64,000 nucleotides of DNA, from positions 160,001 through 224,000 of the forward strand of contig CAVXTP010000010.1 of the NCBI GenBank assembly GCA_963764715.1, written 5' to 3'. Source of the DNA: an uncultured Acidobacteriota bacterium (GTDB lineage: Bacteria > Acidobacteriota > Thermoanaerobaculia > UBA5066 > Gp7-AA6). The notes below the pieces were generated by a model. It was given only the letters and a program-made list of their open reading frames with translations. It had not been told where the DNA came from and did not search any database. Shown here one piece after another: positions 19,802-47,517 of this stretch. Numbering within the stretch: position 1 is the stretch's first letter; the number at the start of each line of letters is the position of its first letter. Made by a program: the position numbers and the translations under genes.

Positions 19802-19819
19802 ATTGGACCAAGGTCTTAG
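19802..19819. promoter_or_regulatory. 18-bp palindromic operator, site B
   Basis: ATTGGACCAAGGTCTTAG; minus-strand -10 TAGGAT at 19777-19772. Confidence 0.68.
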
Positions 19820-20007
19820 CGGACGGCCAGCCCTGCCTCCGACACGGCTCTTCGGCCATCCAGGGGAGTCGGACGGGGGCCTGCCCGAGACCCCCGTTCC
19901 CGACGCGAGGCCATGGCGCGAGAGCTCTGCCTTACCATCTCCACGATGCGAGCTCGAGACCTGCCGCCGTCGTGGCGGCCCCCGGCGGCCTGGCTCCGGG
20001 AGGCCTC

Positions 20008-21858
20008 GTGACGAGCTGGGTCACGGTCGTCTGGTCCGCCATCGCGTCGTCGTGCCTGACGCTCGCGCTCGTGCATGCCCTGATCGGTGTGCGGCAGCGG
20101 CAGCGGGCCAATTTCCTCTTCGCCGTCAACAGCCTCTCCGTCACGGCCATCGCGGCCGTCGAGCTCGCGCTGATGCGGGCGGCCAACCCGGTCGAGTTCG
20201 GCTTGCTCATGCGGTGGATGCACGTTCCCATCTTCGTTCTCGTCACGTCGCTCGTCCTCTTCGTGCGCGCGTTCTTTCGGGCGGGCTCCGCGGGGCTCGC
20301 TGCGGCGGCCATCGCCTCGAGGGCGGCGGCTCTCCTCGTCAACTTTCTCCGCCAGCCCAACCTGAACTTCGTCGAGATCACGAGCCTGCGCCGCGTCGCG
20401 TTCCTGGGAGAAGACGTCTCGGTGGCCGTGGGGACCGTCAGCCGCTGGACGCGGCTGGGCGAGCTCTCCTCGATCCTGCTGCTCGCCTTCCTGCTTTCGG
20501 CGGCGCTTTCGGTCTGGCGGCGCGGCGAGCGCGGACGGGCGGCGATCGTCGGCGGCAGCATGGTGCTGTTCGTTCTCGGGGCCGCAGGCCACGCGGCACT
20601 GGTCCATGCCGGGGTTGTGGTCTTCCCGTACATGTTCAGCGTCGCGTACCTCGGCGTCGTCGCGGCGATGGGACTACGAGTTGACGTCCGACGTCCTTCG
20701 CGCGACCGCCCTGGCGCGCGCGCTCCGCGAGAGCCAGGACGCCCTGCAAGAGAGCGACCGACAGCTGGCCGTGGCGGCCGACGCGGCGAAGCTGGGTTTC
20801 TGGGCGTGGGACCCGGGAACGGACGAACTGTGGATGACGGCCACGGGGCGGGTCGCTTCGCGGCTACTCTCCGAACGAGCGCCTCGACCTGTCCCGCCTT
20901 CTCTCCTCGGTCCACCCGGGGGATCGGGAGGACATCCGGCGATCCATCGAGTCCGCGGTCGACGATCGAAGGTCCTTCGAGCGTGAGTATCGGATCGTGC
21001 GCCCCGACGGGGAGATTCGCTGGGTCGCGTTCCGCGGCGCCGGCGAGCGCGACCCCGGGGACGGGCGGGCCCGCGTGCGGGGCGTCTCGATCGACGTCAC
21101 GTGGCAGAAGATGGCGGAGCTCGAATCGCAGAGGCGGCAGAACGAGGTCGCCCATCTCTCGCGGGTGACCGTGCTCGGCGAGCTGTCGGGATCGCTCGCC
21201 CACGAGATCAATCAGCCGCTGACGGCGATCCTGAGCAACACGGAAACCCTGCAGAACCTGCTGGGGCAGGAGGGGGCGTCTCTCCCCGAAGTCCAGGAGA
21301 TCCTGGCCGACATCGTCCACGAGGGCAGGCACGCGGCCGAGGTAATCCAACGACTCCGACTCCTCCTGAAGAAAGGCGACGTCCGCCCCGAGGCTCTCGC
21401 TCTGCCCGACCTCGTCGACGACGTCGTCCGCCTGGTCCGGGGCGACCTCGCCCACCAGGGCGTGACGTTCTCGGCGGAGCTCCCGGCCGACTTGCCCCGG
21501 GTTCGCGGAGACCGCGTCCAGATCGAACAGGTTCTCCTGAACCTCCTGACGAACGCCTGCGACGCCCTGGCGGACGCCGACCCGCGAGACCGGCGTCTCG
21601 TCCTCGGCGCGGCGGTCGCGGAAGGCGGCGAGGTTCGCGTCTCCGTCCGCGATCGGGGCCACGGGGATCGCGCCTTCGGACCTCGAGCGCGTCTTCGAGC
21701 CGTTCGTGACGACGAAGAGCCGCGGCATGGGCCTGGGACTGTCCGTCTGCCGCACGATCGTCACCGCCCACGGGGGAAGGCTGTGGGCGGTCAACAACGA
21801 CGACCGCGGTGCGACGTTTCATTTCACGCTTCCCGTCGCCGGCACAGCGCCACGATGA
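20008..21858 (+). CDS. Membrane PAS sensor histidine kinase (three frameshifts, ~20673, ~20851, ~21666)
   Basis: Multi-TM N-terminus, PAS/PAC (VHP..YRIVRPDGEIRW), SLAHEINQPL, QVLLNLLTNA, DRGHG, FEPFVTTK, GMGLGL. Confidence 0.85.
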
Positions 21859-22469
21859 CCGCGGAGCGCGTGTACGTGGTCGACGACGAGCCCGCCGTGC
21901 GCAAGGCCCTCTGGCGACTGCTTCGCTCCGCCGGAATCGAGGTCGAGGCTTTCGGGTCCGCGGAGGATTTCCTCGGCGCCCTGGAAGCGGAGCCTGCGGG
22001 CTGCGCGATCCTCGACGTCGCGATGCCGGGGCTGGACGGCCTCGCGCTGCAGGCGGCGCTCGCCTCCCGCGGCATCGACCTGCCGGTCCTGTTCCTGACC
22101 GGACGGGGCGACATCCCGATGTCCGTGCGGGCCATGAAGGCGGGGGCGGCCGACTTTCTGACGAAGCCCGTCGACGGCAAGGCCCTCGTCGCCGCGGTTC
22201 GGCGGGCGCTGGAAAAGGGCCGGTCTGCCGGGCAGGCGCGGCGGGAAGCCTCGGAGATCCGCCGGCGCCTCGCCTCCCTCACCCCGCGGCAGCGCGAAGT
22301 CCTGGAGGGGGTCGTCGCCGGGAAGCTCAACAAGCAGATTGCGGCCGATCTCGGGATCGCGGAGAAGACCGTCAAGATCCATCGCGGCGAGGTCATGTCG
22401 AAGATGGCGGCGGGCTCCGTCGCCGAGCTCGTTCGCTTCGCGCATCGGGCCAGCATCCGGCGCCCGTAG
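21855..22469 (+). CDS. FixJ/NodW-like response regulator (LuxR HTH)
   Basis: VYVVDDE, LDVAMP, FLTGRGDIPMSVRAMKAGA.DFLTKP, LTPRQREV..LNKQIA. Confidence 0.92.
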   Translation: MTAERVYVVDDEPAVRKALWRLLRSAGIEVEAFGSAEDFLGALEAEPAGCAILDVAMPGLDGLALQAALASRGIDLPVLFLTGRGDIPMSVRAMKAGAADFLTKPVDGKALVAAVRRALEKGRSAGQARREASEIRRRLASLTPRQREVLEGVVAGKLNKQIAADLGIAEKTVKIHRGEVMSKMAAGSVAELVRFAHRASIRRP

Positions 22470-22499
22470 CTTCGGGTCGCGGCCCGACCCGGAATTCCG

Positions 22500-22517
22500 T
22501 TAGGACCAAGGTCCGAT
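22500..22517. promoter_or_regulatory. 18-bp palindromic operator, site A
   Basis: TTAGGACCAAGGTCCGAT; extended -10 TGcTAGCGT at 22537-22545. Confidence 0.7.
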
Positions 22518-22552
22518 CGCGCGCCTTCCGAGCGCCTGCTAGCGTCGGGAGC

Positions 22553-22960
22553 GTGAACCCGAGAAGCTGGGAGTGCTTCGTCGCGGTCGTGGATGACGAC
22601 GACGCGGTGCGCCGCGCCCTCTCGCGCCTGGTTCGCTCGCTCGGGTTCGAGGCCGAAGCGTTCCCGTCGGGCAAGGAATTCCTGGCCGCGCTCGCGACGC
22701 GGCGCCCCGATTGCGTCGTGCTCGATCTGCACATGCCGGAAGTCAACGGCTTCGACGTTCAGGCGAGGATGGCCGAGGCGGGCCTGCACGTCCCGGTCAT
22801 CGTGATCACGGGCCACGATTCTCCCGAAGCGCGGGCGAGGGCGCTCGCCGGGGGGGCCTCGGCCTATCTGTGCAAACCGTTGGACGGGTTGGCGCTCCGG
22901 GAGGCGATTCGCGCCGCCGTCGTGGGCAGCGCGACGACGAACGGGAGCGCAAAACAATGA
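22553..22960 (+). CDS. Single-domain response regulator receiver
   Basis: VVDDD, LDLHMP, VITGH, YLCKP. Confidence 0.85.
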   Translation: MNPRSWECFVAVVDDDDAVRRALSRLVRSLGFEAEAFPSGKEFLAALATRRPDCVVLDLHMPEVNGFDVQARMAEAGLHVPVIVITGHDSPEARARALAGGASAYLCKPLDGLALREAIRAAVVGSATTNGSAKQ

Positions 22961-22973
22961 GGAGGAGACCGTC

Positions 22974-24524
22974 ATGATCGCTCGTGGGGAATCCTGGCGC
23001 CGCCGGTTGGCGGCGGCATCGCTGGCGGCGACGATCGTGGGGGCGGCGGCGTCCGGCGCGCTCGGCCAGGAGCTCAAGGGCGCGATCTCGGGGCGCGTCG
23101 TGGACGAAGTCGGCGCGGCCGTCGCCGGCGCCACGGTGACGGCCCGAAACCTCGCGACCGGGTTTCGCCAGTCGGCGGTCTCGGACGCGTCGGGCGCCTT
23201 CCGCATCGAGGCGCTTCCGGCGGGCTCCTACGACGTCACTTCCGAGGCCTCGGGGTTCAGGACCGGGCTGTCGACGGGCGTGGTCGTCCACGCCTCCGAG
23301 TTCACGAACGTGGCCTTCGCTCTGAAGGCCGTCGCCTTCGTGGCGCAGGAGCCGCAGGGACAGGCCGGCGCGCCGCCCCCGGATCCCATGAAGCAGGGGC
23401 CGCGCATGCAGATCTACGGCTTCGCGATGACGGACCTGATCTACGACATCGACCAGGTGAATCCGGACTGGTTCGACGTCGAGCGCCCGTCGAAGCTCCC
23501 GTCGTTTCCGAACGAGTTCGGCGACAACGGCAACTTCTGGGCGAGCGTGCGGCAGACGCGCTTCGGCGTCCGCGGCTGGCTGCCGACGTCGATGGGAGAA
23601 GTGAAGACGGAGTTCGAGTTCGACCTCTTCGGCGTCGGCTCCGACGCCGGCCAGACGACGATCCGACTGCGCCAGGCCTGGGGCGAGCTCGACGCGTTCC
23701 TCATCGGCCAGACGAACAGCGTCTTCATGGACGGGGACGTCTTCCCGAACACGGTCGAGTACTGGGGGCCCGACGGGATGGTGTTCTTCCGCAACGTCCA
23801 GCTGCGATGGGCGCCCATCCAGGGCGACACGCGCCTGTACATCGCACTCGAGCGGCCCGGGGCCACGGGCGATCAGGGAAAGTACTCCGACCGCATCGAG
23901 CTCTCGGGCATCAAGCCGCACTTCCCGTACCCGGACTTCACGGCCCAGTTCCGGACCGGGAGCGACTGGGGGCACGTGCAGCTCGCGGGGATCGTCCGCT
24001 ACATCGGCTGGACCGACACCCTGGCCGACGAGGTCGATCTTTCGGACCACGCCATCGGCTGGGGCCTCAGCGCGAGCTCCGTCATCAAGTTCGGGAAGAC
24101 GGGGAGCCTGCGCCTCCAGGCCACCTACGGCGAGGGCATCGAGAACTACATGAACGACGCGCCCGTCGACGTCGGGATCCAGGCCAACCCGGGCAATCCG
24201 CTTCAGCCGGTCACCGGCAAGGCGCTGCCGATCTTCGGGATGATGGCTTACTACGATTTCAACTGGAGCGACTGCTTCTCGACGGCGATCGGCTATTCCC
24301 GTCTCGACATCGACAACAGCAACGGACAGCTTCCGACCGCCTTCAAGAGCGGGCAGTACGCATCGACCAACATCCTCTATTACCCCGTCCAGAACGTCAT
24401 GACCGGGCTCGAGTTCCAGTGGGGCCGCCGGCAGAACTTCGGCGACGACTTCGCCGTGAACGACTTCCGGATCCAGTTCTCGGCGCAGTACAAGTTCTCG
24501 TTCGATCTGGGAGGGAAGAAGTGA
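22974..24524 (+). CDS. DcaP-family outer-membrane porin with N-terminal carboxypeptidase-regulatory-like domain
   Basis: GAISGRVVDEVGAAVAGATVTARN, SVRQTRFG, RLRQAWGE, GQT.SVFMD, NDFRIQFS. Confidence 0.8.
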   Translation: MIARGESWRRRLAAASLAATIVGAAASGALGQELKGAISGRVVDEVGAAVAGATVTARNLATGFRQSAVSDASGAFRIEALPAGSYDVTSEASGFRTGLSTGVVVHASEFTNVAFALKAVAFVAQEPQGQAGAPPPDPMKQGPRMQIYGFAMTDLIYDIDQVNPDWFDVERPSKLPSFPNEFGDNGNFWASVRQTRFGVRGWLPTSMGEVKTEFEFDLFGVGSDAGQTTIRLRQAWGELDAFLIGQTNSVFMDGDVFPNTVEYWGPDGMVFFRNVQLRWAPIQGDTRLYIALERPGATGDQGKYSDRIELSGIKPHFPYPDFTAQFRTGSDWGHVQLAGIVRYIGWTDTLADEVDLSDHAIGWGLSASSVIKFGKTGSLRLQATYGEGIENYMNDAPVDVGIQANPGNPLQPVTGKALPIFGMMAYYDFNWSDCFSTAIGYSRLDIDNSNGQLPTAFKSGQYASTNILYYPVQNVMTGLEFQWGRRQNFGDDFAVNDFRIQFSAQYKFSFDLGGKK

Positions 24525-24571
24525 AGCGAGCCATTCCGACACCCGATGTCATTCCGATGGGGAGGTAACCC

Positions 24572-25987
24572 GTGAGCACCGTATCCAAGACCAAGACCCG
24601 TACCGAGCACGACCTGCTCGGAGACCTCGCCGTTCCCGCCGACGCCTACTACGGCGTCCAGACCGCGCGGGCCCTCGAGAATTTCCACATCTCGGGTGTC
24701 GAGCTGCGTCTCTATCCCAACCTGATCAAGGCCTTCGCCATGGTCAAGCTCGCCGCCGCGCGAGCCAACTACGACTGCAAGCAATTCTCCAGGGAGATCC
24801 TGAAGGGGATGGAGGGCGCCTGCAAGGAGCTGATCGACGGCAAGCTCCACGACGAGTTCCGTCTCGACGTCTTCCAGGGCGGCGCGGGCACCTCGACCAA
24901 CATGAACGCCAACGAGGTCATCGCCAACCGGGCGCTGGAATTGATGGGCCACAAGAAGGGCGAGTACAAGTATTGCGACCCGCACGACCACGTCAACGGC
25001 TCCCAGTCCACCAACGACGCCTACCCGACGTCGCTCCACATCGGCATGGCCCTCGGCAACATCGAGCTCGTCGCAGCGATGAAGGAGCTCATCGCGTCCT
25101 TCCGCCGCAAGGGGAAGGAATTCTCGAAGATCCTCAAGATGGGGCGCACGCAGCTCCAGGACGCCGTGCCGATGACGCTCGGCCAGGAGTTCGAGGCCTT
25201 CGCCGCGACGCTTTCGGGCGAGGTCCTGGCCCTCGAGCGCATTCAAAACGTGCTCTGCAAGACCAACATGGGGGCGACCGCGATCGGGACGGGCCTGAAC
25301 GCCCCGGCAGGCTACGCCGAGAAGTGCACGGAGCACCTGGCGAAGATCACGGGGCTGCCGATCCACCTGGCCGAAGACCTGATCGAGGCCACGCAGGACA
25401 CGCAACCTTTCGTCCTCTACTCGTCCTGCATGAAGAGCCTGGCGATCAAGCTCTCGAAGGTCTGCAACGACCTCCGGCTCCTCTCCTCGGGACCGCGCTG
25501 CGGACTCCGCGAGATCAATCTCCCGGCCAAGCAGCCGGGCTCCTCGATCATGCCCGGGAAGGTCAATCCCGTGATCCCGGAGGTCGTCAACATGGTCTGC
25601 TTCCGGGTCATCGGCAGCGACCTGACGGTGTCGATGTCCGCCGAGGCCGGCCAGCTCCAGTTGAACGTCTTCGAGCCGGTCATCGCCGCGTGCATCTTCG
25701 AAGCACAGACGATGTTCATCAACGCGGCGCGCACCCTGCGCGTGCACTGCGTGGACGGCATCACCGCCAACCCCGATGTCTGCAAGCACTACGTCGAGTA
25801 CTCGATCGGCACGGTCACGGCCCTGAACCCGGTCATCGGGTACGACCGCTCGACCGAGCTCGCGGCGGAGGCGATGAAGACGGGACGGGGCATTCTCGAG
25901 CTGATCCGGGAGAAGAAGGTCCTGACGGAGGATCAGATCGCGAAGGTCTTCAACCCGGCGGCGATGGCGGGGGCACACCGGAAGTGA
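24572..25987 (+). CDS. aspA: Aspartate ammonia-lyase
   Basis: YYGVQT.RA.ENF, QGGAGTSTNMNANEV, GRTQLQDAVP, GSSIMPGKVNPVIPE. Confidence 0.93.
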   Translation: MSTVSKTKTRTEHDLLGDLAVPADAYYGVQTARALENFHISGVELRLYPNLIKAFAMVKLAAARANYDCKQFSREILKGMEGACKELIDGKLHDEFRLDVFQGGAGTSTNMNANEVIANRALELMGHKKGEYKYCDPHDHVNGSQSTNDAYPTSLHIGMALGNIELVAAMKELIASFRRKGKEFSKILKMGRTQLQDAVPMTLGQEFEAFAATLSGEVLALERIQNVLCKTNMGATAIGTGLNAPAGYAEKCTEHLAKITGLPIHLAEDLIEATQDTQPFVLYSSCMKSLAIKLSKVCNDLRLLSSGPRCGLREINLPAKQPGSSIMPGKVNPVIPEVVNMVCFRVIGSDLTVSMSAEAGQLQLNVFEPVIAACIFEAQTMFINAARTLRVHCVDGITANPDVCKHYVEYSIGTVTALNPVIGYDRSTELAAEAMKTGRGILELIREKKVLTEDQIAKVFNPAAMAGAHRK

Positions 25988-26514
25988 AGTCCGTTGCGCC
26001 TCTTCGCGCGGTCCTGCTGGCATCGGCCATCGGCGTGCTCGCCCTGCCGGCGCGGGGCCAGCAGGCGGCGTCCGACTGGCGTCCGTTCGCGGCGACGTGG
26101 ACCCTCTCGGGGCAGAGGTTCCTCCTGCCGACGGAGGGCGAGCGCCCCGCCTCCATCGTCACCCTTTCGGGTCCCCTGACCATCACGAAGGGGGAGGGGC
26201 TCGGCCGCGGGCTGCTCAGCCAGGTGATCGGCTTCGACGACGGCGGGGCGGTTCTCGCCGGCCGGGCCGTCTTCACGGACGAGCGCGGCGACAGGATCTT
26301 CTGCACCATCCAGGCCGAGCCGATCGGGACCGGCCGCCGGGCCACGGCGACGATCACCGGCGGCACGGGGCGCTTCGCGGGGCTGGAAGGGAGCTTCTCG
26401 TTTGCCTGGCTGTACGTCGTGGACCAGGAGAGCGGCGAGGTCAGCCTGCGCTCCGTCGACATCGAGGGGCGAACCAGACGCGGAGCCTCGGCGCGCGGCG
26501 GGAGCGGGCCATGA
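25984..26514 (+). CDS. Hypothetical secreted beta-rich protein
   Basis: GTGA overlap with aspA; signal peptide; ITGGTGRFAGLEG. Confidence 0.65.
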   Translation: MKSVAPLRAVLLASAIGVLALPARGQQAASDWRPFAATWTLSGQRFLLPTEGERPASIVTLSGPLTITKGEGLGRGLLSQVIGFDDGGAVLAGRAVFTDERGDRIFCTIQAEPIGTGRRATATITGGTGRFAGLEGSFSFAWLYVVDQESGEVSLRSVDIEGRTRRGASARGGSGP

Positions 26515-27918
26515 CGGCGGGTCCGAAGACGCTCCTCGCCCGCCTCGGGGTGGTCGCCCTCGGCGTGGTCATCTGGTTCTGGCCGGTGCCCGAGGGGCTC
26601 ACCCCTCCGGCCTGGCACCTCTTCGCGATCTTCGCCGCCACGATCGCCTCCGTCATCGCCGGCGCATTCCCCATCCTGACGGCCTCGGTCCTCGCGGTCG
26701 CGATCTCCGTTCTTTCCGGGCTCCTGACCCCCGCGAAGGCGTATGCGGGGTTTGCGAACGGGACGATCCTGCTCATCGTGGTCGCTTTTCTCGTGGCGCG
26801 GGCGATCGTGAAGTGCGGCCTCGGCCAGCGCCTCGGCCACCTGGTCGTGCGGCTCTTCGGGCGCTCGACGCTCGGCCTCGGCTACAGCATCTTCTTCTTC
26901 GACGCCGTGATCGCGCCCGCGTTTCCGAGCGACACGGCGCGCTCCGGCGTGATCTACCCCCTCGCCCTCTCGCTCGCGGAAGGCGGCGGCTCGAAGCCCG
27001 ACGAGGCCACGCGCAAGAAGATGGGGGCCTACCTTATGTTCTGCGGGATGGCGACCCTGTCCCTCTCCTCGGCGCTGTGGCTGACCGCGATGGCGGGCAA
27101 TCCGCTCGGAGCCGAGATCGGCAAGACGATGGGCTTCCAGGTCTCGTTCGGCTCGTGGCTGCTGGCCGCCTCGGTGCCGACCCTCCTCGCGCTCGCGCTG
27201 CTGCCGCTGCTCATCTACAAGGTCTTCCCGCCCGAGGTGAAGGCGACGCCCGAGGCTCCCGCCGCGGCGCGCAAGGCGCTGGCCGCGATGGGCCCGCTGA
27301 GCCTGCAGGAGAAGATCGTGGCGGCGACCTTCGTCGTGATGGTCGTCCTGTGGGGGCTCGCCGGGACGCTGAAACTCGACCTGACGGCGGTGGCGTTTCT
27401 CGGTCTCGGAGTGCTCCTCGCGACGGGCGCCCTGACGTTGAAGGACATCGGACAGCAGGGCGACGTGCTCGGGACCTTCATCTGGTTCTCGATCCTGTAC
27501 ACCCTGAGCGGCCAGCTGAACGCCATGGGCTTCATGGGCTATCTCGGGCAGAGACTCGGCGGCGCGCTCGGCGGGCTGCCGGTTCCCGCGGCCTACGCCA
27601 TTCTCGTGGTCGCCTACGTCCTTCTCCACTACCTGTTCGTCAGCCAGACGGCGCACGTTCTCGCTCTCTTCGGCGTGTTCCTCGGAATCGGCTCCCAGCT
27701 CGGCATCCCGCTGCCGGTGCTCGGCTTACGCCCTGCTCTTCTCCACGAGCTACTTGTCGACGATGACGCCGCAGGCCTCGAGCGCGAACGTGCTCGTCGT
27801 CGGGAGCGGCTACCTCACGCAGGGCGAGCTGTATCGCCTCGGCACGATCACGACGGCCTTCAACATCCTGCTGCTCCTTCTCGTGGGGACGCCCTGGCTG
27901 ATGTTCGTGGCGCGGTGA
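26511..27918 (+). CDS. DASS-family dicarboxylate transporter (frameshift ~27725)
   Basis: PVPEGL..AWHLFAIF, PSDTARSG, LTAMAGNP, HYLFVSQTAH. Confidence 0.87.
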
Positions 27919-27931
27919 CGGTGGAGGCGGC

Positions 27932-29608: not shown

Positions 29609-29617
29609 GAGGTTTCC

Positions 29618-35786: not shown

Positions 35787-35804
35787 ATGGGACAATGGTC
35801 TCAT
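35787..35804. promoter_or_regulatory. 18-bp palindromic operator, site C
   Basis: ATGGGACAATGGTCTCAT; plus-strand -10 TAACTT at 35827-35832. Confidence 0.6.
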
Positions 35805-35935
35805 GCCGGAAAGCTCGTGGGCGGGGTAACTTGAGCCGGGTCGAGTGCAATCCGCGAAACCGGTCGTCTCTGATCGGAATGAATCATTCGAGTCCTGGTT
35901 GCGAGTCGTCAGAATCAGGACGGACGGAGGCCGAG

Positions 35936-38680
<2,745 letters not shown>

Positions 38681-38899
38681 GCCGAGAACGGATCTCTTGA
38701 CCGACGAGGCCGAGACCGGGCCCCGGTGGGCCGGGCGGCCTCATCGAGGAGCCGAGGTATCCCGGCCGGGCCGTGAACCAGCCGGGGGGCGAGACGGGCT
38801 GCCGGGGTTGCGGGCCGGCCTGTGGGATATGCTCCCTCGAGCGCTGCCGTCCGGCGGCCGACCTCCGGTCGCCCCGTCGTGGCGCAAAGGAGTACCGTG

Positions 38900-39244
38900 A
38901 TGAGAGGTAAGACTGTTGTAATCGCCGCGACCGCGCTCTTGGTCGCACTCGTCGCCTCGGCCGGGGACCAACCCTGTTCGATCCACGCGAAGAAGAGCCA
39001 GTCGAAGGAAGAGCTCACCGCGATGGCCAAGTGGTCGCACGCCGATGCGCTCGGAGCAGCGCTCAAGTCCCTGAATGTCACCGCCGACAAGGCGACGGTG
39101 AAAAAGTCCGAGCTCGAGGTCGAGGACGGGTGCCTCGTCTACTCGTTCGACATCGTCGTCGCCGGGGAGAGCAAGGGCAAGCACGAGATCGAGGTGGATG
39201 CCGGCAACGGACGGATCCTCTCGACGGACCACGATCGGCACTGA
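38900..39244 (+). CDS. PepSY-domain secreted protein
   Basis: Signal peptide; ELEVEDG.LVYSFDI..EIEVDAGNGRIL. Confidence 0.8.
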   Translation: MRGKTVVIAATALLVALVASAGDQPCSIHAKKSQSKEELTAMAKWSHADALGAALKSLNVTADKATVKKSELEVEDGCLVYSFDIVVAGESKGKHEIEVDAGNGRILSTDHDRH

Positions 39245-39363: not shown

Positions 39364-41448
39364 TCAGTTCAGACGGAACGACAGCGCCACGCTCAGGATT
39401 TCCTTGGCCGCGAAGGGGCTCGAGCTCCAGGCGATCGTCGGCCCCTGCACGAAGATGTCGATGATCCCGGCAGTGAAGGCGATGCCGATGCGTGAGCCGG
39501 CCTGGAAGTAGTACTGGTTCCCCAGCTCTCCGCGGACCCCCGGGGAACCGTCGAATATTTCGCTCCCGCGGACCTGCGGTCCGCCCTCGATGCGCACCGG
39601 CGTCACCGCCAGCCCGAGCACGCCGAGGGGGTACCAGCGCAGGTCCAGGCCGAACGCTCCCGTCAGGTAGGCCGAGTCTCCGACCGTCCGCCGGGCGCAG
39701 ATCGCCAGCGACCCGCCGGGCGCCCAGAGGAACCTGCCGCCCCAGCGGTCCCGATCCCACAGAACCATCGCCCCGACCGCGCCCTCCCCGTACTGCCGTC
39801 CCTCGACGACCTCGGTCGGCGGCTCGACCGTGGTGACTCCCGTTCCCACGTACCAGGAGGCCGTCCGGCCTTCGAGTCGTCCGTACGGCGCTTCCGGGGG
39901 CGACCACGTGGCGTCCGACCGCTCGACCTTTTCGGTGTGGTGCTCGATCAGGGGCCCGCCGGCGAACTTCGGCGACGTCAGGGCCCAGGCGAAGCCGATT
40001 CCGATCGAGACCTCCGCGGCGGGCTTGCGCCAGTCGATCTCCAGCGGGCCGTGGAGCGTGAGGGCGAAGCGGCTGTCGATGACGTAGTCGACGCGGAAGA
40101 AATTCGACGTGACTTCCGATCCGGTGCGCTCCCCTCCGAAGGCGACGCGCCAGGCCGCCGGAGTGAACCCCACGGCGAGGCGTCTTCCGATGGGGAGCGC
40201 GAGGTCGACCTCGAGGCCGAGCAGGCCGGCCCCCACGCCGTTGTTGTAGCGCCGGTACCCGACCTCGCCGGAGAGCGCGTAGACGAAGGGATTGAGCTCC
40301 CAGCTGTACCGGAAGAGCGTCGCCTTTCCGGTGACGTCGACGAATTTGCGCGTGAAGTTGTAGGTCGTGTCGAGGCCGAGGAAGGCGTACGCGCCGGGAG
40401 AGATGTCGGTGGGCTGGCGCACGCCGCACTCGTCGCCCTGGCAGGAATAGGCCGCCGTAAACCAGCGGTCCTTGAAGGAGCGCCATTCCTCGGATTGTTC
40501 CGGGGCCGGCTCCGGAACCGGGACGGAAGACGCGGGCGGGGCGGAGGTCAACTTCTGTTTCTCCGCGATGCGGAGGTCGTGCACGACGATGAGCAGCTCG
40601 ACGATCGCCTGTCTCGCATCGTCGCCCTCCGCGGAGAGGCATTCGAAGGGCACCTTGTACGGATAATCGGTGAGGTCCTTGCAGTGGTGCCCGTCGGAGA
40701 CGACACGTTCCTCGACGACGTAAGTCTTGTCGCGGTGGTCGTCCCACTTGTGGAACGCGGAGTCGGGGATTTGCGCGACCTCTTCGGTCACCAGTCCCGG
40801 TAATCGGGTCAGTGGCTTCCAGATGCGGAGCTCTTCGATCTCATGCGTCCCCGGGCGACGCTGCGAGTGGGCTCCCGAGAACGAGTCGCCCACGGCGTGC
40901 ATGAGCTCGTACAGGCCGTACCCGCCCTTGCGCGCCCCGGGCCCCCCGTCGATGACGACCTGGCGCATGAGGTTGTCGAGCAGGTCTCGGCAGCGGACGA
41001 GCGCGGAGGTCGCGAGCCCGCGGGGAATCACGGTTCCTTCGATGTCCGGGGATTCGCCGTCCTCCAGCTGCGCCATGAAGTGAAAGCACTGGCCGGCGTC
41101 GCTGAATTGCCTCCGAAAGGCCGCGTCGGGATGGTCGGTCAGGGGCTTGGGCCAGCCGAGGAGGGGATTGGTCGTCGTCGCGTCGGCGCAAAAACCCGGG
41201 GGCTGGTCGCCCCAGCCGAAGCAGAGGGGCGCCTGGAGGTCCCCGTCGTTGAAGAGATCCCGCAGAACGTCGGGCCGCGCCGGCTCCCCGCCGTGCCCTT
41301 CGATGAGGGTGCGGTAGGCGACCGCCTCGATGACGACGTGCCCCTTGCTGTCGAAGGCCGCGGCGCGCTCCGCGGAGAGCGCCGCGAAGAGCGCGATCGG
41401 CAGCGTGAGGAGGGCCGCTTGCCGCGTTCCTCCCGGGGCTCGCTTCAT
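39364..41448 (-). CDS. Secreted protein with S1/P1-nuclease/phospholipase C-like Zn domain and C-terminal beta-rich region
   Basis: Mature N-terminus FDSKGH, HF, HAVGDSFSGAH, HKWDD; amphipathic strands ending LSFRLN. Confidence 0.6.
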   Translation of the reverse strand: MKRAPGGTRQAALLTLPIALFAALSAERAAAFDSKGHVVIEAVAYRTLIEGHGGEPARPDVLRDLFNDGDLQAPLCFGWGDQPPGFCADATTTNPLLGWPKPLTDHPDAAFRRQFSDAGQCFHFMAQLEDGESPDIEGTVIPRGLATSALVRCRDLLDNLMRQVVIDGGPGARKGGYGLYELMHAVGDSFSGAHSQRRPGTHEIEELRIWKPLTRLPGLVTEEVAQIPDSAFHKWDDHRDKTYVVEERVVSDGHHCKDLTDYPYKVPFECLSAEGDDARQAIVELLIVVHDLRIAEKQKLTSAPPASSVPVPEPAPEQSEEWRSFKDRWFTAAYSCQGDECGVRQPTDISPGAYAFLGLDTTYNFTRKFVDVTGKATLFRYSWELNPFVYALSGEVGYRRYNNGVGAGLLGLEVDLALPIGRRLAVGFTPAAWRVAFGGERTGSEVTSNFFRVDYVIDSRFALTLHGPLEIDWRKPAAEVSIGIGFAWALTSPKFAGGPLIEHHTEKVERSDATWSPPEAPYGRLEGRTASWYVGTGVTTVEPPTEVVEGRQYGEGAVGAMVLWDRDRWGGRFLWAPGGSLAICARRTVGDSAYLTGAFGLDLRWYPLGVLGLAVTPVRIEGGPQVRGSEIFDGSPGVRGELGNQYYFQAGSRIGIAFTAGIIDIFVQGPTIAWSSSPFAAKEILSVALSFRLN

Positions 41449-41478
41449 GGGGTCAGGTGATGCCGTCCCTTCTGCCCG

Positions 41479-42975
41479 CTAGGGATTGACCGGCGCCGGG
41501 GTGGGCTCGCGTCGCTCCTCCGTCGCGAATTCCGGCACGTCGGCCGGGGGCGGCGCCTCGGTTCCGGGCGACTGCCAGGTCGGGTTCTCGAGATTCCACC
41601 CGCCGCCGAGAGCCTTGTAGATGTCGACGTAGTCGTTCAGCAAGTCGAGGCGCGCTCGGGCGAGGGAGATCTCCGCCGGGAAGAGAAGCTGCATCGAGTA
41701 GAGCACTTCGAAGTAGTCCGCGAGACCGCTGTCGTAGCGCACCTGCGAAAGGCGCACCATCTCGCGATACGCGCCGGCGGTCCTCTCGAGCTCGGCCACG
41801 GCGGCGGCGATCTTCATCCGCGCGTAGAGAACCGTGGTCGTCTCCGCGAATGCTCCGGTGACGACCCGCTCGTAGACGGCTTTGGTCTGCTCCCACTGGG
41901 CGTAGGTCGCGGCGTACTCGCTGCGGATCCGTCCGCCCTGAAACAGCGGGCCGAGAAGGCTGGCGGCGATCGACCAGGTCTTTCCGGCGGGATAGAAGAA
42001 GTTGTCGATCTCGGGGGCGACGGCGCCGAAGAGCCCCGTCAGGCTGAGCCGGGGGAAGAAATTCGCGAACGCGACGCCGACGAGGGCATTGGCCGCGATG
42101 AGGTCTTCTTCGGCCTGACGCACGTCGGGACGACGAAGGAGCAGCTCCGAGGGAAGGCCGGGCGGCACCTCGGGCGGGATCGGCTGCGTTTCGATCGACT
42201 CTCCGCGCGGAACCGGTCCGGGATTGCGGCCGAGGAGCAGGCTGAGCTGATTCTCGGTGGCCTCGATCCTTCGCTCGATCTCGGGGATCTGCGCCGCGAC
42301 CTGCCCCAGCGCCGCCTCCGCGTAGGAGGTCTCGATCGCGGACGCCGCGCCCTGGTCGAGCTTGCGCTTGAAGAGGTTGTAGGTCTCCTGGAAGGAGTCC
42401 ACGGTCTTGCGCGTGATCACGAGCTCGGCGTCGAGCTCGCGGAGCGTGAAGTACGTGCGCGCGACGTCCGAAATCAGGGAGAGCAGGACGCCGCGGCGCG
42501 CATCCTCGCTCCCGAAGAAGCGGGCCTTCGCGGATTCGTTCAGCCGCCGGATCCGGCCCCAGATGTCGAGCTCCCAGCCGAAGTTGACGTTGGCGTCCCA
42601 GAGGTTTCCGGTCGCAGTGCTGTTGGGCGGGAGATAGACCGAGGTCCGGCCGCGGGAAAAGCCGCCGCCGATGTTGATCTGGGGGAAGAACTCCGACCGG
42701 GCGATTCCCGCGTTCGCCCGGAACTCGTCGACCCGCCAGGCCGCGATTCGGACGTCGTAGCTGCCGGCGAGAGCCTCGTCGATCAGCCGCTTGAGGACCG
42801 GGTCGCCGAAGACGTCCCACCAGGGCTGGTCGGCGAGCGACGGCGCGGGCGCCGGCGGTCCCTGAATCTCGCGGTACTGGTCGGGAACGGTGAGGGGAGG
42901 CCTCTCGTAGTTGGGGCCGACGGCGCATCCGGACACGAAGACGACGGCGAGGGCCGCGGCGACGAGCCTCCTCAT
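41479..42975 (-). CDS. Efflux outer-membrane lipoprotein (NodT/OprM family)
   Basis: Lipobox VSGC-AVGPNY, WELDIWG, LPSELL.RRPDV, YKALGGGW. Confidence 0.93.
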   Translation of the reverse strand: MRRLVAAALAVVFVSGCAVGPNYERPPLTVPDQYREIQGPPAPAPSLADQPWWDVFGDPVLKRLIDEALAGSYDVRIAAWRVDEFRANAGIARSEFFPQINIGGGFSRGRTSVYLPPNSTATGNLWDANVNFGWELDIWGRIRRLNESAKARFFGSEDARRGVLLSLISDVARTYFTLRELDAELVITRKTVDSFQETYNLFKRKLDQGAASAIETSYAEAALGQVAAQIPEIERRIEATENQLSLLLGRNPGPVPRGESIETQPIPPEVPPGLPSELLLRRPDVRQAEEDLIAANALVGVAFANFFPRLSLTGLFGAVAPEIDNFFYPAGKTWSIAASLLGPLFQGGRIRSEYAATYAQWEQTKAVYERVVTGAFAETTTVLYARMKIAAAVAELERTAGAYREMVRLSQVRYDSGLADYFEVLYSMQLLFPAEISLARARLDLLNDYVDIYKALGGGWNLENPTWQSPGTEAPPPADVPEFATEERREPTPAPVNP

Positions 42976-42976
42976 C

Positions 42977-45900
42977 TCAGTGCCCTCCGCCGGCGCCGGT
43001 CGGGCTCGGGGCCGGCGTGCCCGCGGCGGCGGGAGCGGCTTCCGGGACCCTGGCCTTGCCCTTGCCCGAGAGCTTTTCGACCATCACGAAGAGCGCGGGG
43101 ATGAGAAAGATCGCGATTCCCGTCGCGGCGAGCATGCCGACGATGACGACGGTGCCCAGCACTTTGCGGGAGACGGCCCCCGAGCCCGAAGCGGTCCAGA
43201 GCGGGACGCAGCCGAGGATGAAGGCGAAGGACGTCATCAGGATCGGCCGGAGGCGCAGCTTCGCCCCTTCGAGAGCGGCGTCCACCAGGCTCTTTCCCTC
43301 TTTTTGCTGCAGGACGGCGAACTCGACGATCAGGATGGCGTTCTTGGCGGCGAGTCCGATCAGCATGACGAGCCCGATCTGGCCGTAGACGTCGAGGTTG
43401 AACTTGCGCATGAGGAGTCCGAGGAAGGCGCCGAAAACCGCGACCGGGACGGACAGCAGGACGCTGAAGGGAAGGGACCAGCTCTCGTAGAGCGCGGCGA
43501 GGATCAGGAACACAAAGACGATCGAGAGGACGAACACCCGTGCGCCCGCCCCCGCGGCCTTGACCTCCTGGTACGACATGTCGGCCCAGTCGTAGCCCAT
43601 CTCGCGCGGCAGGACCTCCTTCGCGACGGCCTCGAGCGCCGCCGTGGCCTGGCCGGAGCTGTAGCCGGGCGCGGGGACTCCGGTGACCTGCGCGGCCCGG
43701 AAGAGGTTGAACCGGTTGGTGAACTCGGGCCCCGCGATCGCCCGGGTCGTCGCAACGGCGGAAAGGGGCACCATCTGGCCATCGTTGTTTCGCACGTAGA
43801 ACTGGTTGATGTCCGCGGCCTTGACGCGTCCCTCGGCTTCGGCCTGCAGGAAGACCTTCCACTGGCGCCCGAAGCGGTTGAACTGGTTCACGTAGATGCC
43901 GCCAAGAAACGCCTGGAGGGTCTGGTAGACATCTCCGACGGCGACGCCCTGTTTCAGGACCTTGTCCCGGTTGATGTCGGCGTAGATCTGGGGCACCGAG
44001 GGCCGCCAGACGCTGTTGACGTTGGCGAGCTCCGGGCGCTTCCTCGCGGCCTCCAGGAACTTCTGAAGATTCTGGTTCAGGTACTCGACGCTTCCGCCGC
44101 TGCGGTCCTGGAGCCAGAAGGAGAAGCCGCCGCCCGTGCCGAGTCCCTGGATGGCCGGAGGCGGAAAGGCCACGGCGCTCGCTTCGAGAATCTGGGCTCG
44201 AAGAACGCCATTCAACCGCTGCATGATCGGCCCGACCTCCATCTCCTTGCCTTTGCGCTCGTCCCAGGGATCGAGGGAGACGAAGTAGAACCCCGTGTAC
44301 GGCGCCGAGGCACCGGCCAGGAGGCTGTACCCCGCCACCGTCGTGACGTACTTGACCCCCTTGGTCTCCGCGAGGATCTTCTCGATCTTCTTGCAGACCG
44401 CATCCGTCCGCTGGAGCGAAGAGGCGTCGGGAAGCTGGACGTTGATGAAGAAGTAGCCCTGGTCCTCGTCCGGGAGGAAGCCCGAGGGAAGCTTCTTTCC
44501 GAGCAGTCCGGAGAGCGCGACGAAGCCGCCGAGGATCAGGAGCGTGACGAAGACCTTTCGGACCAGGTGATGGGAGAGGTTGACGTAGCCGTTGGTCATC
44601 TTCGCAAAGACCCGGTTGAACCAGGCGAAGAACTTCCCGAGCGGCCCCTTCGACTCCTTCTTGGGTTTCAGGATGAGGGAACAGAGCGCCGGCGACAGCG
44701 ACAGGGCGTTGAAGGCCGAAATCAGGACCGAAACGGCGATCGTGATGGCGAACTGCATGTTCATCCGCCCCTGGATCCCGCCCATGAAGGCCACGGGGAT
44801 GAACACGGCGGAAAGGACGAGGGCGATTCCGATGACCGGCTGCGTGACCTCTTCCATCGCCTTCAGCGTGGCGTCCTTCGGCGAGAGTCCGTGCTCGATG
44901 TGGTGCTCGACGGCCTCGACGACGACGATCGCGTCGTCCACGACGAGGCCGATGGCGAGGACCAGGCCGAAGAGCGAAAGCGTGTTGATCGAGAAGCCGA
45001 GCATCGGAAAGAACATGAACGTGCCGACGAGCGACACCGGCACGGCGAGCAGCGGAATGAGCGTCGCCCGCCACCCCTGCAGGAACAGGAACACGACGAT
45101 GATGACGAGAACGATCGCCTCGAAGAGGGTGTGCTCGATTTCCTTGATGCCCTCGGTGACCGGCAGCGTCGTGTCGAGGGCGACGACGTAGTCGAGGTCG
45201 TCCGGAAAGCGCTCCTTCAACTCCTGCATGGTCTTCTTGACGCCCTCGGCGACGGCGATGGCGTTGGAGCCCGGGACCTGGAAGACGCCGATCGGGCAGG
45301 AGGGCTTGCCGTTCAAGCGCGCGCGCTGCTGGTAGTTCAGGGCGCCGAGGTCGATCCGGCTGACGTCCTTCAGGCGAACCATGGACCCGTCGGGGTTCAA
45401 GCGCACGACCACGTTGCCGAATTCCTCGGCGGTCTCGAGGCGACCCTTGGAGCGGAGGGTGTAGGTGAACTCCTGGCCCTGCGGAGCGGGCTCCGTGCCG
45501 ATTCCCCCGGCCGGGTTGACCGTGCTCTGCTGCTTCACCGCGTTCATCAGGTCGGGGACGGTCAGCCCGAGGCTCGCCAGCCGTTCCGGCTTGACCCAGA
45601 TGCGCATGGCGTAGTCGGCGGTTCCGTAGTTCTGGATCTGGCCCACACCCGGAACGCGGTAGATGGCGTCGTTGACGTTGATCGTCGCGTAGTTGCCGAG
45701 GAAGAGCGCGTCGTACGTTCCCTTGGGGGAATACAGCGAGACGATGAGCAGGGGATTGCTCGTGGCCTTCTTGACCGTCAGGCCGAACTGGTTCACGTCG
45801 GCCGGCAGGTTGGGCTGCGCCTGCGAGACCCGGTTCTGCGTGTTGACCTGGTCGAAGTTGATGTCGGTCTCGACGTCGAACGTGACGGTGAGCTTCATCG

Positions 45901-46159
45901 TCCCGTCGTTCGCGTTGATGGACTGCATGTAGATCATGTAGTCGACGCCGTTCATCTGCTGCTCGATCGGCGTCGCGACGGACTGCTCGATCGTGATCGC
46001 GTCGGCGCCGGTGTAGGTCGTCGTGACCTGGATCTGCGGCGGCACGATGTCCGGGTACTGGGCGGTCGGGAGCTTCGTCATCGCGACCGCCCCCGCCATC
46101 GTCATCAGGATCGCGATGACGATCGCGACGATCGGCCGGCGGACGAAAAAGGCGCCCAC
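42977..46159 (-). CDS. RND efflux permease (HAE1/AcrB family)
   Basis: FFVRRPI, AIGLVVDDAIVVVE, GLAAKNAILIVEFA, RLRPILMTS. Confidence 0.95.
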   Translation of the reverse strand: MGAFFVRRPIVAIVIAILMTMAGAVAMTKLPTAQYPDIVPPQIQVTTTYTGADAITIEQSVATPIEQQMNGVDYMIYMQSINANDGTMKLTVTFDVETDINFDQVNTQNRVSQAQPNLPADVNQFGLTVKKATSNPLLIVSLYSPKGTYDALFLGNYATINVNDAIYRVPGVGQIQNYGTADYAMRIWVKPERLASLGLTVPDLMNAVKQQSTVNPAGGIGTEPAPQGQEFTYTLRSKGRLETAEEFGNVVVRLNPDGSMVRLKDVSRIDLGALNYQQRARLNGKPSCPIGVFQVPGSNAIAVAEGVKKTMQELKERFPDDLDYVVALDTTLPVTEGIKEIEHTLFEAIVLVIIVVFLFLQGWRATLIPLLAVPVSLVGTFMFFPMLGFSINTLSLFGLVLAIGLVVDDAIVVVEAVEHHIEHGLSPKDATLKAMEEVTQPVIGIALVLSAVFIPVAFMGGIQGRMNMQFAITIAVSVLISAFNALSLSPALCSLILKPKKESKGPLGKFFAWFNRVFAKMTNGYVNLSHHLVRKVFVTLLILGGFVALSGLLGKKLPSGFLPDEDQGYFFINVQLPDASSLQRTDAVCKKIEKILAETKGVKYVTTVAGYSLLAGASAPYTGFYFVSLDPWDERKGKEMEVGPIMQRLNGVLRAQILEASAVAFPPPAIQGLGTGGGFSFWLQDRSGGSVEYLNQNLQKFLEAARKRPELANVNSVWRPSVPQIYADINRDKVLKQGVAVGDVYQTLQAFLGGIYVNQFNRFGRQWKVFLQAEAEGRVKAADINQFYVRNNDGQMVPLSAVATTRAIAGPEFTNRFNLFRAAQVTGVPAPGYSSGQATAALEAVAKEVLPREMGYDWADMSYQEVKAAGAGARVFVLSIVFVFLILAALYESWSLPFSVLLSVPVAVFGAFLGLLMRKFNLDVYGQIGLVMLIGLAAKNAILIVEFAVLQQKEGKSLVDAALEGAKLRLRPILMTSFAFILGCVPLWTASGSGAVSRKVLGTVVIVGMLAATGIAIFLIPALFVMVEKLSGKGKARVPEAAPAAAGTPAPSPTGAGGGH

Positions 46160-46163
46160 GACG

Positions 46164-47342
46164 CTACGTCCCGGTCTTCGGAGCGGCTTCGGCGGCGGGG
46201 GCCGGCTCGCTCGAAGCCTCTTTCGGCACGACGGTCATGCCGCTTCGCACCCGCTGGAGACCTTCGACGATGATGCGGTCTCCCGCCTTGAGTCCGTCCT
46301 CGATGACCCACAGGCTCCCGTCGACGGGCCCCGGCTTCACGACGCGGATCGTCACCTTGTTGTCAGCGCCGACGACCGCGACCTGATAACTGCCCTGCAA
46401 CTCGCTCACGGCGCGCTGCGGAACGAGGATGGCGCCCTTCTTCGTATCGACCGCGACGCGGACCTTGGCGTACTGGCCGGGCCGCAACAGGTTGCCGGGG
46501 TTCGGAAAGACGCCGGCGAGCTGGATCGTGCCCGTCTTGACGTCGACTTCGCGCCCCACCAGGAACGGGCGGCCGCGGTGAGGGAACACCGAGCCGTCGG
46601 AAAGGACGAGCTGCAGGGGGCCCTTGTCCAGGCTCTGGTCGGTTCGCAGCGTCTTCTCCGGAGGACCGTACTTGGCGACCCAGGCCAGGTACTCCTGTTC
46701 GCTCGGGTTGAAGTACACCTTGATGGGGTCGACCTGCGAGACCGTTGTCATCAGGATCTCGCGGTTGACGAGATCACCGACCTGAGACTTGGCAACGCCC
46801 GCGACACCATCGATCGGCGAGACGACCTTCGTCCAGCCGAGGTCGAGTCTCGCCTTCTCGAGGCTCGCCCGAGCGCTCTCCACGTTGGCCTGCGCCGTGC
46901 GCTCGCGCGTTTCGGCGTCGTCGAGCTCCTGCTGGCTGATGGCTTTCTCGGCGGCCAGGGGCCGGTATCGTGCCACCGTCGTCGTGGCGTTGGCGAGCGT
47001 CGCTTCGTACTGGGCGAGCGTGCCCTTGGCCTGGTCGTAGGTCGCCTGGAACTGCCGCGGGTCGATTTCGAAGAGGGTATCGCCGGCCTTGACCGCGAAT
47101 CCCTCGCGGTAGACCTGTCGGAGGACGTAGCCCTCGATCTGCGGGCGGATCTCGGCGTTGACGAAGCCGTCGAGCGTCCCGATCCACTCCTGAACGATCG
47201 AGACGTCTTTCTGGACGACCGGGGCGACCTCGACGGTCGGGGGAGGCGCGACCGGCGTCTCCTTCTTGCCGCACGCCGAGGCGGCGGCGAGTGCGAACAG
47301 CACGGCGGCTGAGAGCGGTAGTCGTCGGCTGCGCAGCGGCAT
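46164..47342 (-). CDS. RND periplasmic adaptor (MFP) lipoprotein
   Basis: ASAC lipobox, EIRPQIEG, SPIDG, FPNP..LLRPGQY. Confidence 0.92.
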   Translation of the reverse strand: MPLRSRRLPLSAAVLFALAAASACGKKETPVAPPPTVEVAPVVQKDVSIVQEWIGTLDGFVNAEIRPQIEGYVLRQVYREGFAVKAGDTLFEIDPRQFQATYDQAKGTLAQYEATLANATTTVARYRPLAAEKAISQQELDDAETRERTAQANVESARASLEKARLDLGWTKVVSPIDGVAGVAKSQVGDLVNREILMTTVSQVDPIKVYFNPSEQEYLAWVAKYGPPEKTLRTDQSLDKGPLQLVLSDGSVFPHRGRPFLVGREVDVKTGTIQLAGVFPNPGNLLRPGQYAKVRVAVDTKKGAILVPQRAVSELQGSYQVAVVGADNKVTIRVVKPGPVDGSLWVIEDGLKAGDRIIVEGLQRVRSGMTVVPKEASSEPAPAAEAAPKTGT

Positions 47343-47499
47343 GTTTTCCTCCGAAAATCGGCGGCTCTTCATCGGAGTTAGAGCAAACGCAATATATCCC
47401 GCAGGCCCGGTGAGGCGAAACGCCGTCGCGCGACGGAACGAAAGCACGTCGTGGCTCATCTTCGAGGCTGAAGATAGGCCCGGCGGCCGGAATCTCGCC

Positions 47500-47517
47500 A
47501 TAGGGCCTTGGTCCCAT
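47500..47517. promoter_or_regulatory. 18-bp palindromic operator, site D
   Basis: Minus strand ATGGGACCAAGGCCCTAT; -10 TATCTT at 47476-47471. Confidence 0.66.

Follow-up and report, generated by a model that had tools for sequence, protein, structure and literature searches.

Four intergenic regions in a 64,000-nucleotide stretch of DNA from an uncultured Acidobacteriota bacterium (assembly GCA_963764715.1, contig CAVXTP010000010.1, positions 160,001 to 224,000 of the forward strand; hereafter the window, with positions counted from its first letter) carry the same 18-bp palindrome, which raises the question of what protein reads this box and whether the unrelated-looking genes behind its four copies are controlled as one system. 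Between the first two boxes lies a response-regulator gene (21855-22469, plus strand) whose product combines a receiver domain with a GerE/LuxR-type helix–turn–helix (HTH) and has the recognition helix EKTVKIHRGEVM. We consider it quite probable that the palindrome is the operator of this regulator, a protein of the FixJ/StyR branch, and that the phosphorylated regulator dimer would activate the four promoters. What the analysis shows is that the sites are real and specific, that they keep a set distance to a -10-like hexamer, that they vary along with the recognition helix, and that other genomes have them in front of the same gene families.

An earlier reading of this DNA from its letters alone (the sequence-only reading) had listed four 18-mers, and all four are present, letter for letter and position for position, in intergenic DNA. 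Box 1 (19802-19819; forward ATTGGACCAAGGTCTTAG; 22.2 bits with the weight matrix described below) reads CTAAGACCTTGGTCCAAT toward a DUF3300 operon on the minus strand. Box 2 (22500-22517, plus strand; TTAGGACCAAGGTCCGAT; 17.4 bits) lies 31 nt past the stop codon of the regulator gene. Box 3 (35787-35804, plus strand; ATGGGACAATGGTCTCAT; 20.5 bits) occupies the divergent region between a gene for a 243-aa protein on the minus strand and a GH63-like gene on the plus strand, and box 4 (47500-47517, minus strand; ATGGGACCAAGGCCCTAT toward an RND operon) is, at 24.6 bits, the best site of the window. Across genomes the operator consensus is ATTGGACC-WW-GGTCCAAT. The region of box 3 also holds a second, imperfect inverted repeat, TTGGACTTCATGGTCCG, at 35750-35766, 20 nt off the box and 12 nt before the ATG of the 243-aa gene, whose GGAC/GTCC arms stand two bases wider apart than those of the box and which was left unscored by the weight matrix.

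A scan of species-representative genomes with the regulator protein gave 80 loci (46-71% identity; the source genome was not among them), of which the 26 with the helix type of the window, EKT[VI]K[VI]HR (EKTxKxHR), are called class A. A weight matrix trained on 42 sites from 24 other genomes, the window being excluded, ranked the four boxes first in the 64 kb at 17.4-24.6 bits, with the fifth-best position at 2.8 bits, the best score in the reversed window sequence at 2.3 bits and no further sites in the window. This matrix, built without the window sites, is the strongest chance control. Simple pattern counts agree that the motif exceeds chance: the 18-mer pattern with up to three mismatches has four matches in the window against 0.38 expected, a number reached in none of 100 shuffles. 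The 12-mer core occurs three times with at most one mismatch (0.61 expected; 3 of 100 shuffles reach three), an enrichment that is weak when taken alone, and 19 times with at most two mismatches (9.8 expected; 0 of 100 shuffles reach 19).

That weak enrichment of the bare 12-mer, together with the place of box 2 just past a stop codon, where terminators occur, is what speaks for chance matches, for a dispersed repeat of the REP (repetitive extragenic palindrome) or MITE (miniature inverted-repeat transposable element) kind, or for an RNA hairpin or terminator. Against these explanations stand the roughly 15 bits that separate the boxes from the next best position of the window, the recurrence of the element at the same junction beside the regulator gene in at least seven named phyla, the set spacing to a -10-like hexamer described below, and the flanks of the four copies, which are dissimilar beyond a few bases. 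An RNA element or terminator was rejected, because the boxes fold no better than shuffled sequences (z from -0.92 to +0.53) and are followed by no T-run, and because Rfam gave no matches in the window. We thus regard this whole group of explanations as extremely unlikely.

Recognition helix and half-site across related loci

Both features of a NarL/FixJ response regulator were found in the window protein, namely an N-terminal receiver with the phospho-acceptor set (Pfam Response_reg, 2.6e-27, full length at positions 1-111 of 111) and a C-terminal GerE/LuxR-type HTH (Pfam GerE, 5.8e-20, positions 2-57 of 57). The closest solved structures are StyR (1yio, 1.1e-50) and Bradyrhizobium FixJ (5xso, 1.6e-49), and the receiver domain aligns without gaps to the receiver domains of both. 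Among the 80 loci the nearest are L001 and L002, the latter from an Acidobacteriota metagenome-assembled genome that is syntenic with the window and whose proteins are 96% (asparaginase), 92% (aspartase), 90% (DASS transporter) and 89% (Asp-Al_Ex transporter) identical to those of the window.

The 12-mer core, with at most one mismatch, follows the stop codon of the regulator gene by about 10-70 nt in 13 of the 80 loci, most commonly as the perfect palindrome ATTGGACCAAGGTCCAAT; at many other loci a different palindrome takes this position. All but two of the 26 class-A loci (24 loci) contain the 16-mer TNGGACCWWGGTCCNA with up to two mismatches, as do 5 of the 54 loci outside class A (p = 2e-13, Fisher); this pattern was taken from the consensus of the sequence-only reading, so the count is not circular. 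Outside class A the half-site differs with the helix: loci with EQT..HRAH (L003, L005, L006 and L036) have TTATAC or TTAAAC, those with EQNIK (L018, L033 and L024) have TTGCAC or TTACAC, the ERTVKA locus L054 has TTGTAC, the EQT..HRM locus L079 has TAAAAC in boxes of the ATAAAACCATGG type, and several loci with K[FY]HR have CTnnnCCAAAGGnnnAG, which is one base longer. At loci with a TVEVHR helix (L044, L045, L049, L056, L060, L061, L066, L071, L074, L077, L080 and others) no box was found. In the verrucomicrobial loci L003, L005 and L006, tandem or hybrid boxes stand past the regulator gene, with one half resembling TATAC and the other resembling GGTCCAAT. Furthermore, L011 has four boxes within 2.5 kb (10637-13081).

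In a maximum-likelihood tree of 81 regulators, the helix type of the window does not form one clade; well-supported branches force at least three helix changes, and the TTATAC group is nested among TTGGAC rows with 99/82 support. The pairing was also followed in a small prospective test on three plasmid-borne homologues from cultured strains, which were fetched afterwards. Paraburkholderia phenoliruptrix, with the helix EKTVKVHR, carries sites that score 31.3 and 28.9 bits, those of Eleftheria terrae (EKTIKVHR) reach 24.9 and 20.1 bits, and Cronobacter condimenti (EITVKVHR) has no site of at least 10 bits in the fetched locus, so that all three loci behave as the helix–site pairing predicts.

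These data bear on whether the box is instead bound by another protein, such as a paralogous LuxR-type regulator or an unrelated dimer, with the adjacency of the regulator gene being mere synteny. A second gene for a receiver-plus-GerE protein does lie nearby in L011, L019, L023, L025 and L053, and L038 (Gemmataceae), which has another helix type, carries two overlapping boxes of 32.5 and 30.1 bits at 3648-3683, upstream of its kinase gene. Yet the half-site changes with the helix of the adjacent regulator across at least three supported transitions in the tree, and the pairing holds in L001, L002, L008 and L034, where there is no second regulator, as well as in the three loci fetched later. 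A different binder is thus, in our judgement, very unlikely.

Position of the boxes at the predicted promoters

As the sequence-only reading had noted, a -10-like TAnnnT hexamer lies 22-24 nt past each box and points at the operon or gene that it had named. Past box 1, TAGGAT (19772-19777, minus strand) stands at 24 nt and overlaps the first ATG of the longest open reading frame (ORF), and the same hexamer recurs at 24 nt in L002 and at 23 nt in L001. Past box 2, TAGCGT (22540-22545, plus strand) stands at 22 nt, as it also does in L001 and L002. TAACTT (35827-35832, plus strand) lies 22 nt past box 3 toward the GH63-like gene, and TATCTT (47471-47476, minus strand) lies 23 nt past box 4, its end 11 nt short of the ATG at 47459. 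Box 3 was considered as a promoter of the divergent unit of the 243-aa and SulP genes as well, which is less likely, since no -10-like hexamer stands at the right offset in that direction, where offset 22 holds GACCAT.

The spacing was counted at the 39 sites of at least 20 bits in class-A loci, the window being left out, by recording TANNNT at each offset on both sides. The hexamer stands exactly 22 nt past the box at 16 of the 39 sites; offsets 21, 23 and 24 have one, two and one, and the remaining 46 offsets (0-49) average 0.24. With this spacing, and with a transcription start assumed 7 nt past the hexamer, the box would run from -52 to -35 with its centre at -43.5, a predicted class II-like position that is calculated from predicted -10 hexamers. 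The box touches the position of the -35 hexamer, and the -35 hexamers of the window (TTGGCG, TCGCGC, TGCCGG and TGGCGA) are poor. An alternative sigma-factor promoter with the box as its -35 element was rejected, because the distance from the box to the -10 hexamer is too long. At box 2, the window shares with L001 and L002 a GTG codon 7 nt past the -10 hexamer; this GTG is the start codon of the window's receiver gene, which suggests that the receiver message may be leaderless.

A box that ends where the -35 hexamer would begin would also suit a repressor, for which the operator would be real and its occupancy from -52 to -35 would block the -35 element until a signal removes the protein. Several orthologous sites read TTGTCC or TTGTGC across the end of the box and the bases that follow, 17 nt before the -10 hexamer, which would be a usable -35 element that a bound dimer would cover. 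Against repression stand the poor -35 hexamers of the window, which are typical of activator-dependent promoters, and the fixed one-position phasing to the -10 hexamer, which occlusion does not need and face-of-helix contacts with the polymerase would. The closest characterised relatives, FixJ and StyR, furthermore activate transcription. Repression is therefore unlikely in our view, and activation is the reading that we follow below.

The kinase gene upstream of the regulator gene (19972-21858, plus strand) encodes a sensor histidine kinase with a membrane domain of about 240 aa followed by PAS_3, HisKA and HATPase_c, and its stop codon overlaps the regulator ATG. Intact orthologues have 622 aa in L002 and 642 aa in L001. 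The N-terminus is a multi-pass membrane domain that gave a weak match to 7TMR-DISM alone (E = 0.008). Compared with these orthologues, the window gene falls into four successive frame pieces. At three points (near 20672, at about 20850 and at about 21665) the frame changes by the equivalent of one extra base; the latter two points lie in GGGG runs and the first in GGACTAC. Single frame changes relative to the L002 proteins were also found by tblastn in the DUF2950 gene (17511-17741) and in the DASS gene (27724-27728); AcrB (1060 aa) and the GH63-like protein are each encoded by a single uninterrupted ORF. Because DUF2950 and DASS are shifted too, and because GGGG runs coincide with two of the three frame changes of the kinase gene, the frame pieces of the kinase probably come from assembly indels. 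A kinase pseudogene specific to this gene was considered and not upheld, given the frame changes in the other two genes.

From these data we infer binding by the regulator, activation rather than repression, a part for the kinase, feedback by the receiver, and a signal, and propose the following scenario. The neighbouring membrane PAS kinase would phosphorylate the regulator, which would dimerise so that each recognition helix reads one TTGGAC half-site in a 6-N4-6 geometry. The dimer, placed near -43.5 and abutting a weak or absent -35 element, would recruit RNA polymerase to the TAnnnT hexamer 22-24 nt downstream. Four units would thereby be switched on together, namely DUF3300-DUF2950-CAX-VIT, the receiver operon, the GH63-like hydrolase and the RND pump. 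The stand-alone receiver may in turn feed back on the pathway, most likely as a phosphate sink or a kinase inhibitor. Its acidic pocket and its acceptor Asp, Thr and Lys are complete, and it has three cysteines and no output domain; one would expect it to compete for the phosphoryl groups of the kinase or else to act as an inhibitor of that kinase. As for the signal, our guess, drawn from the cargo alone, is ion, pH or envelope stress, the cargo in question being cation/proton antiporters, VIT1, TerC, PPK2, the RND pump, the ammonia-releasing enzymes asparaginase, aspartase and glutaminase, and the secreted DUF3300/DUF2950 proteins. The Escherichia coli DUF3300 gene yacH is reported, in the consulted part of one source, as CpxR-regulated and part of the Cpx envelope-stress regulon (PMC9600279).

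Genes behind the boxes and their recurrence

Annotation with Pfam and NCBIfam confirmed the gene names that had been given from the letters. The span of genes, put there at about 33 kb, had to be lowered, as the genes behind the four promoters total about 27 kb. Behind box 1 lies operon 1 (15672-19743, minus strand), which comprises DUF3300 (18481-19743, with a likely GTG start at 19743 behind AGGAGG), DUF2950 (17434-18465, with the apparent frameshift near 17741), a CAX calcium/proton exchanger (16352-17437; NCBIfam cax) and a VIT1-family transporter (15672-16325).

The first gene behind box 2 encodes the stand-alone receiver of 135 aa (22553-22960, plus strand), identified by Pfam and from its translation. 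The rest of operon 2 (22974-33227) follows on the same strand with short gaps or overlapping stop and start codons: a DcaP-type porin (22974-24524), aspartate ammonia-lyase, aspA (24572-25987), a secreted 176-aa protein with a signal peptide (25984-26514), a DASS transporter with an apparent frameshift (26511-27915), an Asp-Al_Ex transporter (27932-29608), a type II asparaginase (about 29655-30704), a second DcaP porin (about 30700-32221) and PPK2 (32223-33227). From this arrangement operon 2 would appear to be one transcript. An apparent gap of 520 bp separates aspA from the DASS gene; a second promoter region there was considered and rejected, since the gap holds the conserved 176-aa ORF, which overlaps both neighbours at GTGA and ATGA junctions and has 86% DNA identity to L002.

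Behind box 3 stands the GH63/MGH1-like glycoside hydrolase gene (35936-38680, plus strand; Pfam), with which a PepSY-domain gene (38822-39244) may share a unit. The gene on the other side of this box encodes the 243-aa protein (35007-35738, minus strand), a homologue of which, 61% identical, is encoded in L002 (7354-8037) between the DUF3300 and kinase genes; this protein may belong to the same regulator–box system. Operon 4 (39364-47459, minus strand), behind box 4, encodes a membrane-fusion protein (46164-47459), an AcrB-type RND pump (42977-46159), an outer-membrane factor (41479-42975), these three named by Pfam, and a 694-aa protein (39364-41448). Outside the regulon, at 49769-50922, a gene for an extracytoplasmic function (ECF)-type sigma factor overlaps a gene for a YCII-related-domain protein by 4 nt.

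Content in other genomes was taken from Pfam annotation of 24 class-A loci, all except L012 and L022; for most of them it covered the genes lying no more than a few kb from the regulator or a site. A receiver-only gene with a box at most 160 nt upstream was found in 15 of the 26 class-A loci, and the arrangement in which it directly follows the regulator gene recurs, so that the stand-alone receiver is the most conserved predicted target. Six of the 26 class-A loci, and none of the 54 others, contain DUF3300 (p = 8e-4), and in four of these six (L002, L042, L051 and L078) a box lies at most 161 nt upstream of it. In P. phenoliruptrix a 31.7-bit box precedes a hypothetical gene followed by DUF3300 and DUF2950, another box lies upstream of a TrkA-C transporter gene, and yet another lies between the genes for a cation:proton antiporter and TerC. 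The Trinickia locus L051 has boxes between DUF3300-DUF2950 and CAX and before an operon of Gly-zipper, MFP, AcrB and OEP genes, and two Verrucomicrobia (L052 and L064) have a box at PPK2. Glutaminase is part of the L001 cargo; sulfatase, FGE and HAD genes, together with genes for outer-membrane proteins of the Phenol_MetA_deg family, are found at further class-A loci.

Box 1 accordingly has orthologues before DUF3300 at five loci, those of L002, L042, L051, L078 and P. phenoliruptrix, and the conservation that the sequence-only reading had asked for is thus found; a site that exceeds chance and is conserved at these orthologous promoters is what a regulon with a shared operator presents. The proposal that unrelated-looking genes form one system is supported by the recurrence of the receiver, DUF3300-DUF2950, the antiporters, the RND pump and PPK2; the glucosidase was seen boxed in the window alone. 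The sensors of class-A loci vary, from a membrane domain with PAS_3 to ETR1_N with PAS, double PAS, GAF, and a hybrid kinase with a receiver. The Acidobacteriaceae loci L014, L023, L025 and L053 have a kinase in which an ethylene-receptor-like ETR1_N domain (E ~1e-40) precedes the PAS domains.

Several observations weigh against the reading of the palindrome as the activating operator of this regulator. The helix classes were drawn up after the data had been seen and the sequences are related rather than independent, and the weight matrix was trained on class-A loci, which makes the site scores of individual loci partly circular. Among the class-A loci, L012 (a 3-kb contig) and L022 lack a site, five loci with other helices match TNGGACCWWGGTCCNA, and L038 combines strong boxes with a different helix type. 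The canonical TANNNT stands at 22 nt in no more than the 16 of 39 sites, the rest having mostly weaker hexamers there (CACACT, CATGCT and GATTGA), and the position of the box fits repression by occlusion too. DUF3300 has no site of at least 12 bits nearby in L001 and L053, and in Cupriavidus metallidurans CH34 neither a site nor the regulator was found within 24.5 kb of DUF3300-DUF2950. No boxed counterpart of the GH63-like gene was found at the other loci, the one homologue (in L079) being without a site, and the kinase gene of the window is broken into frame pieces. Weighed with these, the co-variation, the phasing and the recurrence still support the proposal of one regulator and one palindrome at four promoters, with a predicted class II-like site.

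A wider idea, which we hold tentatively and which may well be wrong, is that a conserved plug-in output module, made up of the regulator, the 18-bp operator and the boxed receiver, has been kept in at least seven named phyla with the operator preserved base for base and the promoter register fixed at 22 nt, and that in this module the sensor would be freely swapped, the cargo would drift round an ion, pH and envelope core, and helix and half-site would change together. Since a change of helix in sister clades came with a change of half-site, the family may offer a recognition code that can be read for HTH domains of the FixJ/StyR type; the Lys in E-K-T pairs with the GG in TTGGAC, and Gln pairs with the AT in TTATAC.

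To our knowledge, DUF3300 and DUF2950, widespread secreted proteins that always occur together, have no known function. In the consulted part of a survey of root-nodule bacteria, they are described as induced in two RNA-seq studies and their gene neighbourhood as uninformative (PMC4653623). The present analysis gives them a first regulatory context, consisting of a predicted regulator, a precise predicted operator and a set of genes that would be co-regulated, and the module idea, if true, would provide a first handle on their purpose. In the literature searched, outside which most subscription journals lie, we found no description of the operator, the regulator subfamily or the regulon; the literal motif strings returned unrelated texts only, in non-bacterial or primer contexts, and none of the literature found on DUF3300/DUF2950 deals with this regulator–box system. 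We know of almost no transcription-factor sites in Acidobacteriota, which gain here a testable promoter model. Cultured and tractable carriers are P. phenoliruptrix BR3459a, Vineibacter terrae, Methylomicrobium lacus and E. terrae. The natural series of helices and half-sites may be useful for studying how FixJ/StyR-type domains choose DNA, and the system offers a possible example of a two-component output module kept across phyla under exchangeable sensors.

Comparison with known systems

A FixJ/StyR-type regulator with its operator is a kind of system that is already well known. LuxR and TraR, which are activated by a ligand and have no receiver, perform class II activation as dimers on an 18-20 bp palindrome near -42.5, where they replace the -35 element; the corresponding centre here, calculated solely from predicted -10 hexamers, is about -43.5. 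DosR/DevR of mycobacteria is a NarL-family regulator that binds a 20-bp palindrome, controls a multi-operon stress regulon and is served by GAF-domain kinases. Its half-site core presumably resembles the GGAC...GTCC core of the window boxes. DevR is, however, a distant structure match (3c3w, E = 4.4e-15), by a wide margin less close in sequence than StyR and FixJ, and the organisms and the cargo differ.

Closer is FixL-FixJ. FixJ is the top NCBIfam model for the window regulator (E = 4e-66), and its score of 222.4 bits lies below the equivalog cut-off of 255 (NF006900), so that the earlier description of the regulator as FixJ-like stands at the level of the family and does not extend to FixJ proper. 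Likewise, FixL is the top model for the intact L002 kinase; the match takes in model positions 221-481 of 485 and scores 212.3 where the cut-off is 850, which is too low for a FixL partner. The recognition helix of FixJ is TIEVYRAN, compared with TVKIHRGE in the window regulator; the TVEVHR loci, which have E at the position of this lysine, are those at which no box was found. The fixT gene is reached through FixK; the receiver gene of the window lies directly behind the regulator gene and has the regulator's own predicted box. Caulobacter FixT is, in the consulted part of its description, a single-domain receiver that acts as a feedback inhibitor of a FixL-type kinase and depends for this function on a 4-Cys Fe-S motif (PMC7078487). 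The window protein is also a single-domain receiver of its predicted pathway, with three cysteines in place of that four-cysteine motif.

The best structure match is to the StyR/TodT/TmoT group of the FixJ/NarL family, which serves aromatic catabolism in Pseudomonas: 1yio aligns without gaps over residues 5-197, and the domain order and the PAS-containing kinase partner are the same as in the window system. The consulted part of one source gives ATAAACN4GTTTAT as the operator consensus of StyR-type regulators and names K175, V176 and H179 as the DNA contacts of StyR (PMC5874301). The 6-N4-6 geometry is common to these operators and the window boxes, whereas the half-site is TTGGAC here and ATAAAC there, and of the three contact residues K is retained in the window protein, V is replaced by I and H by G. 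Contact residues and operator thus place the window regulator outside StyR/TodT. Its kinase is a single membrane-anchored PAS kinase rather than a double TodS-type kinase, and the link to aromatic compounds is absent from the window cargo. With scores below the cut-offs and a kinase that begins with a membrane domain, the regulator–kinase pair is therefore FixJ/StyR-like in family, standing beside FixLJ and StyRS as neither of the two.

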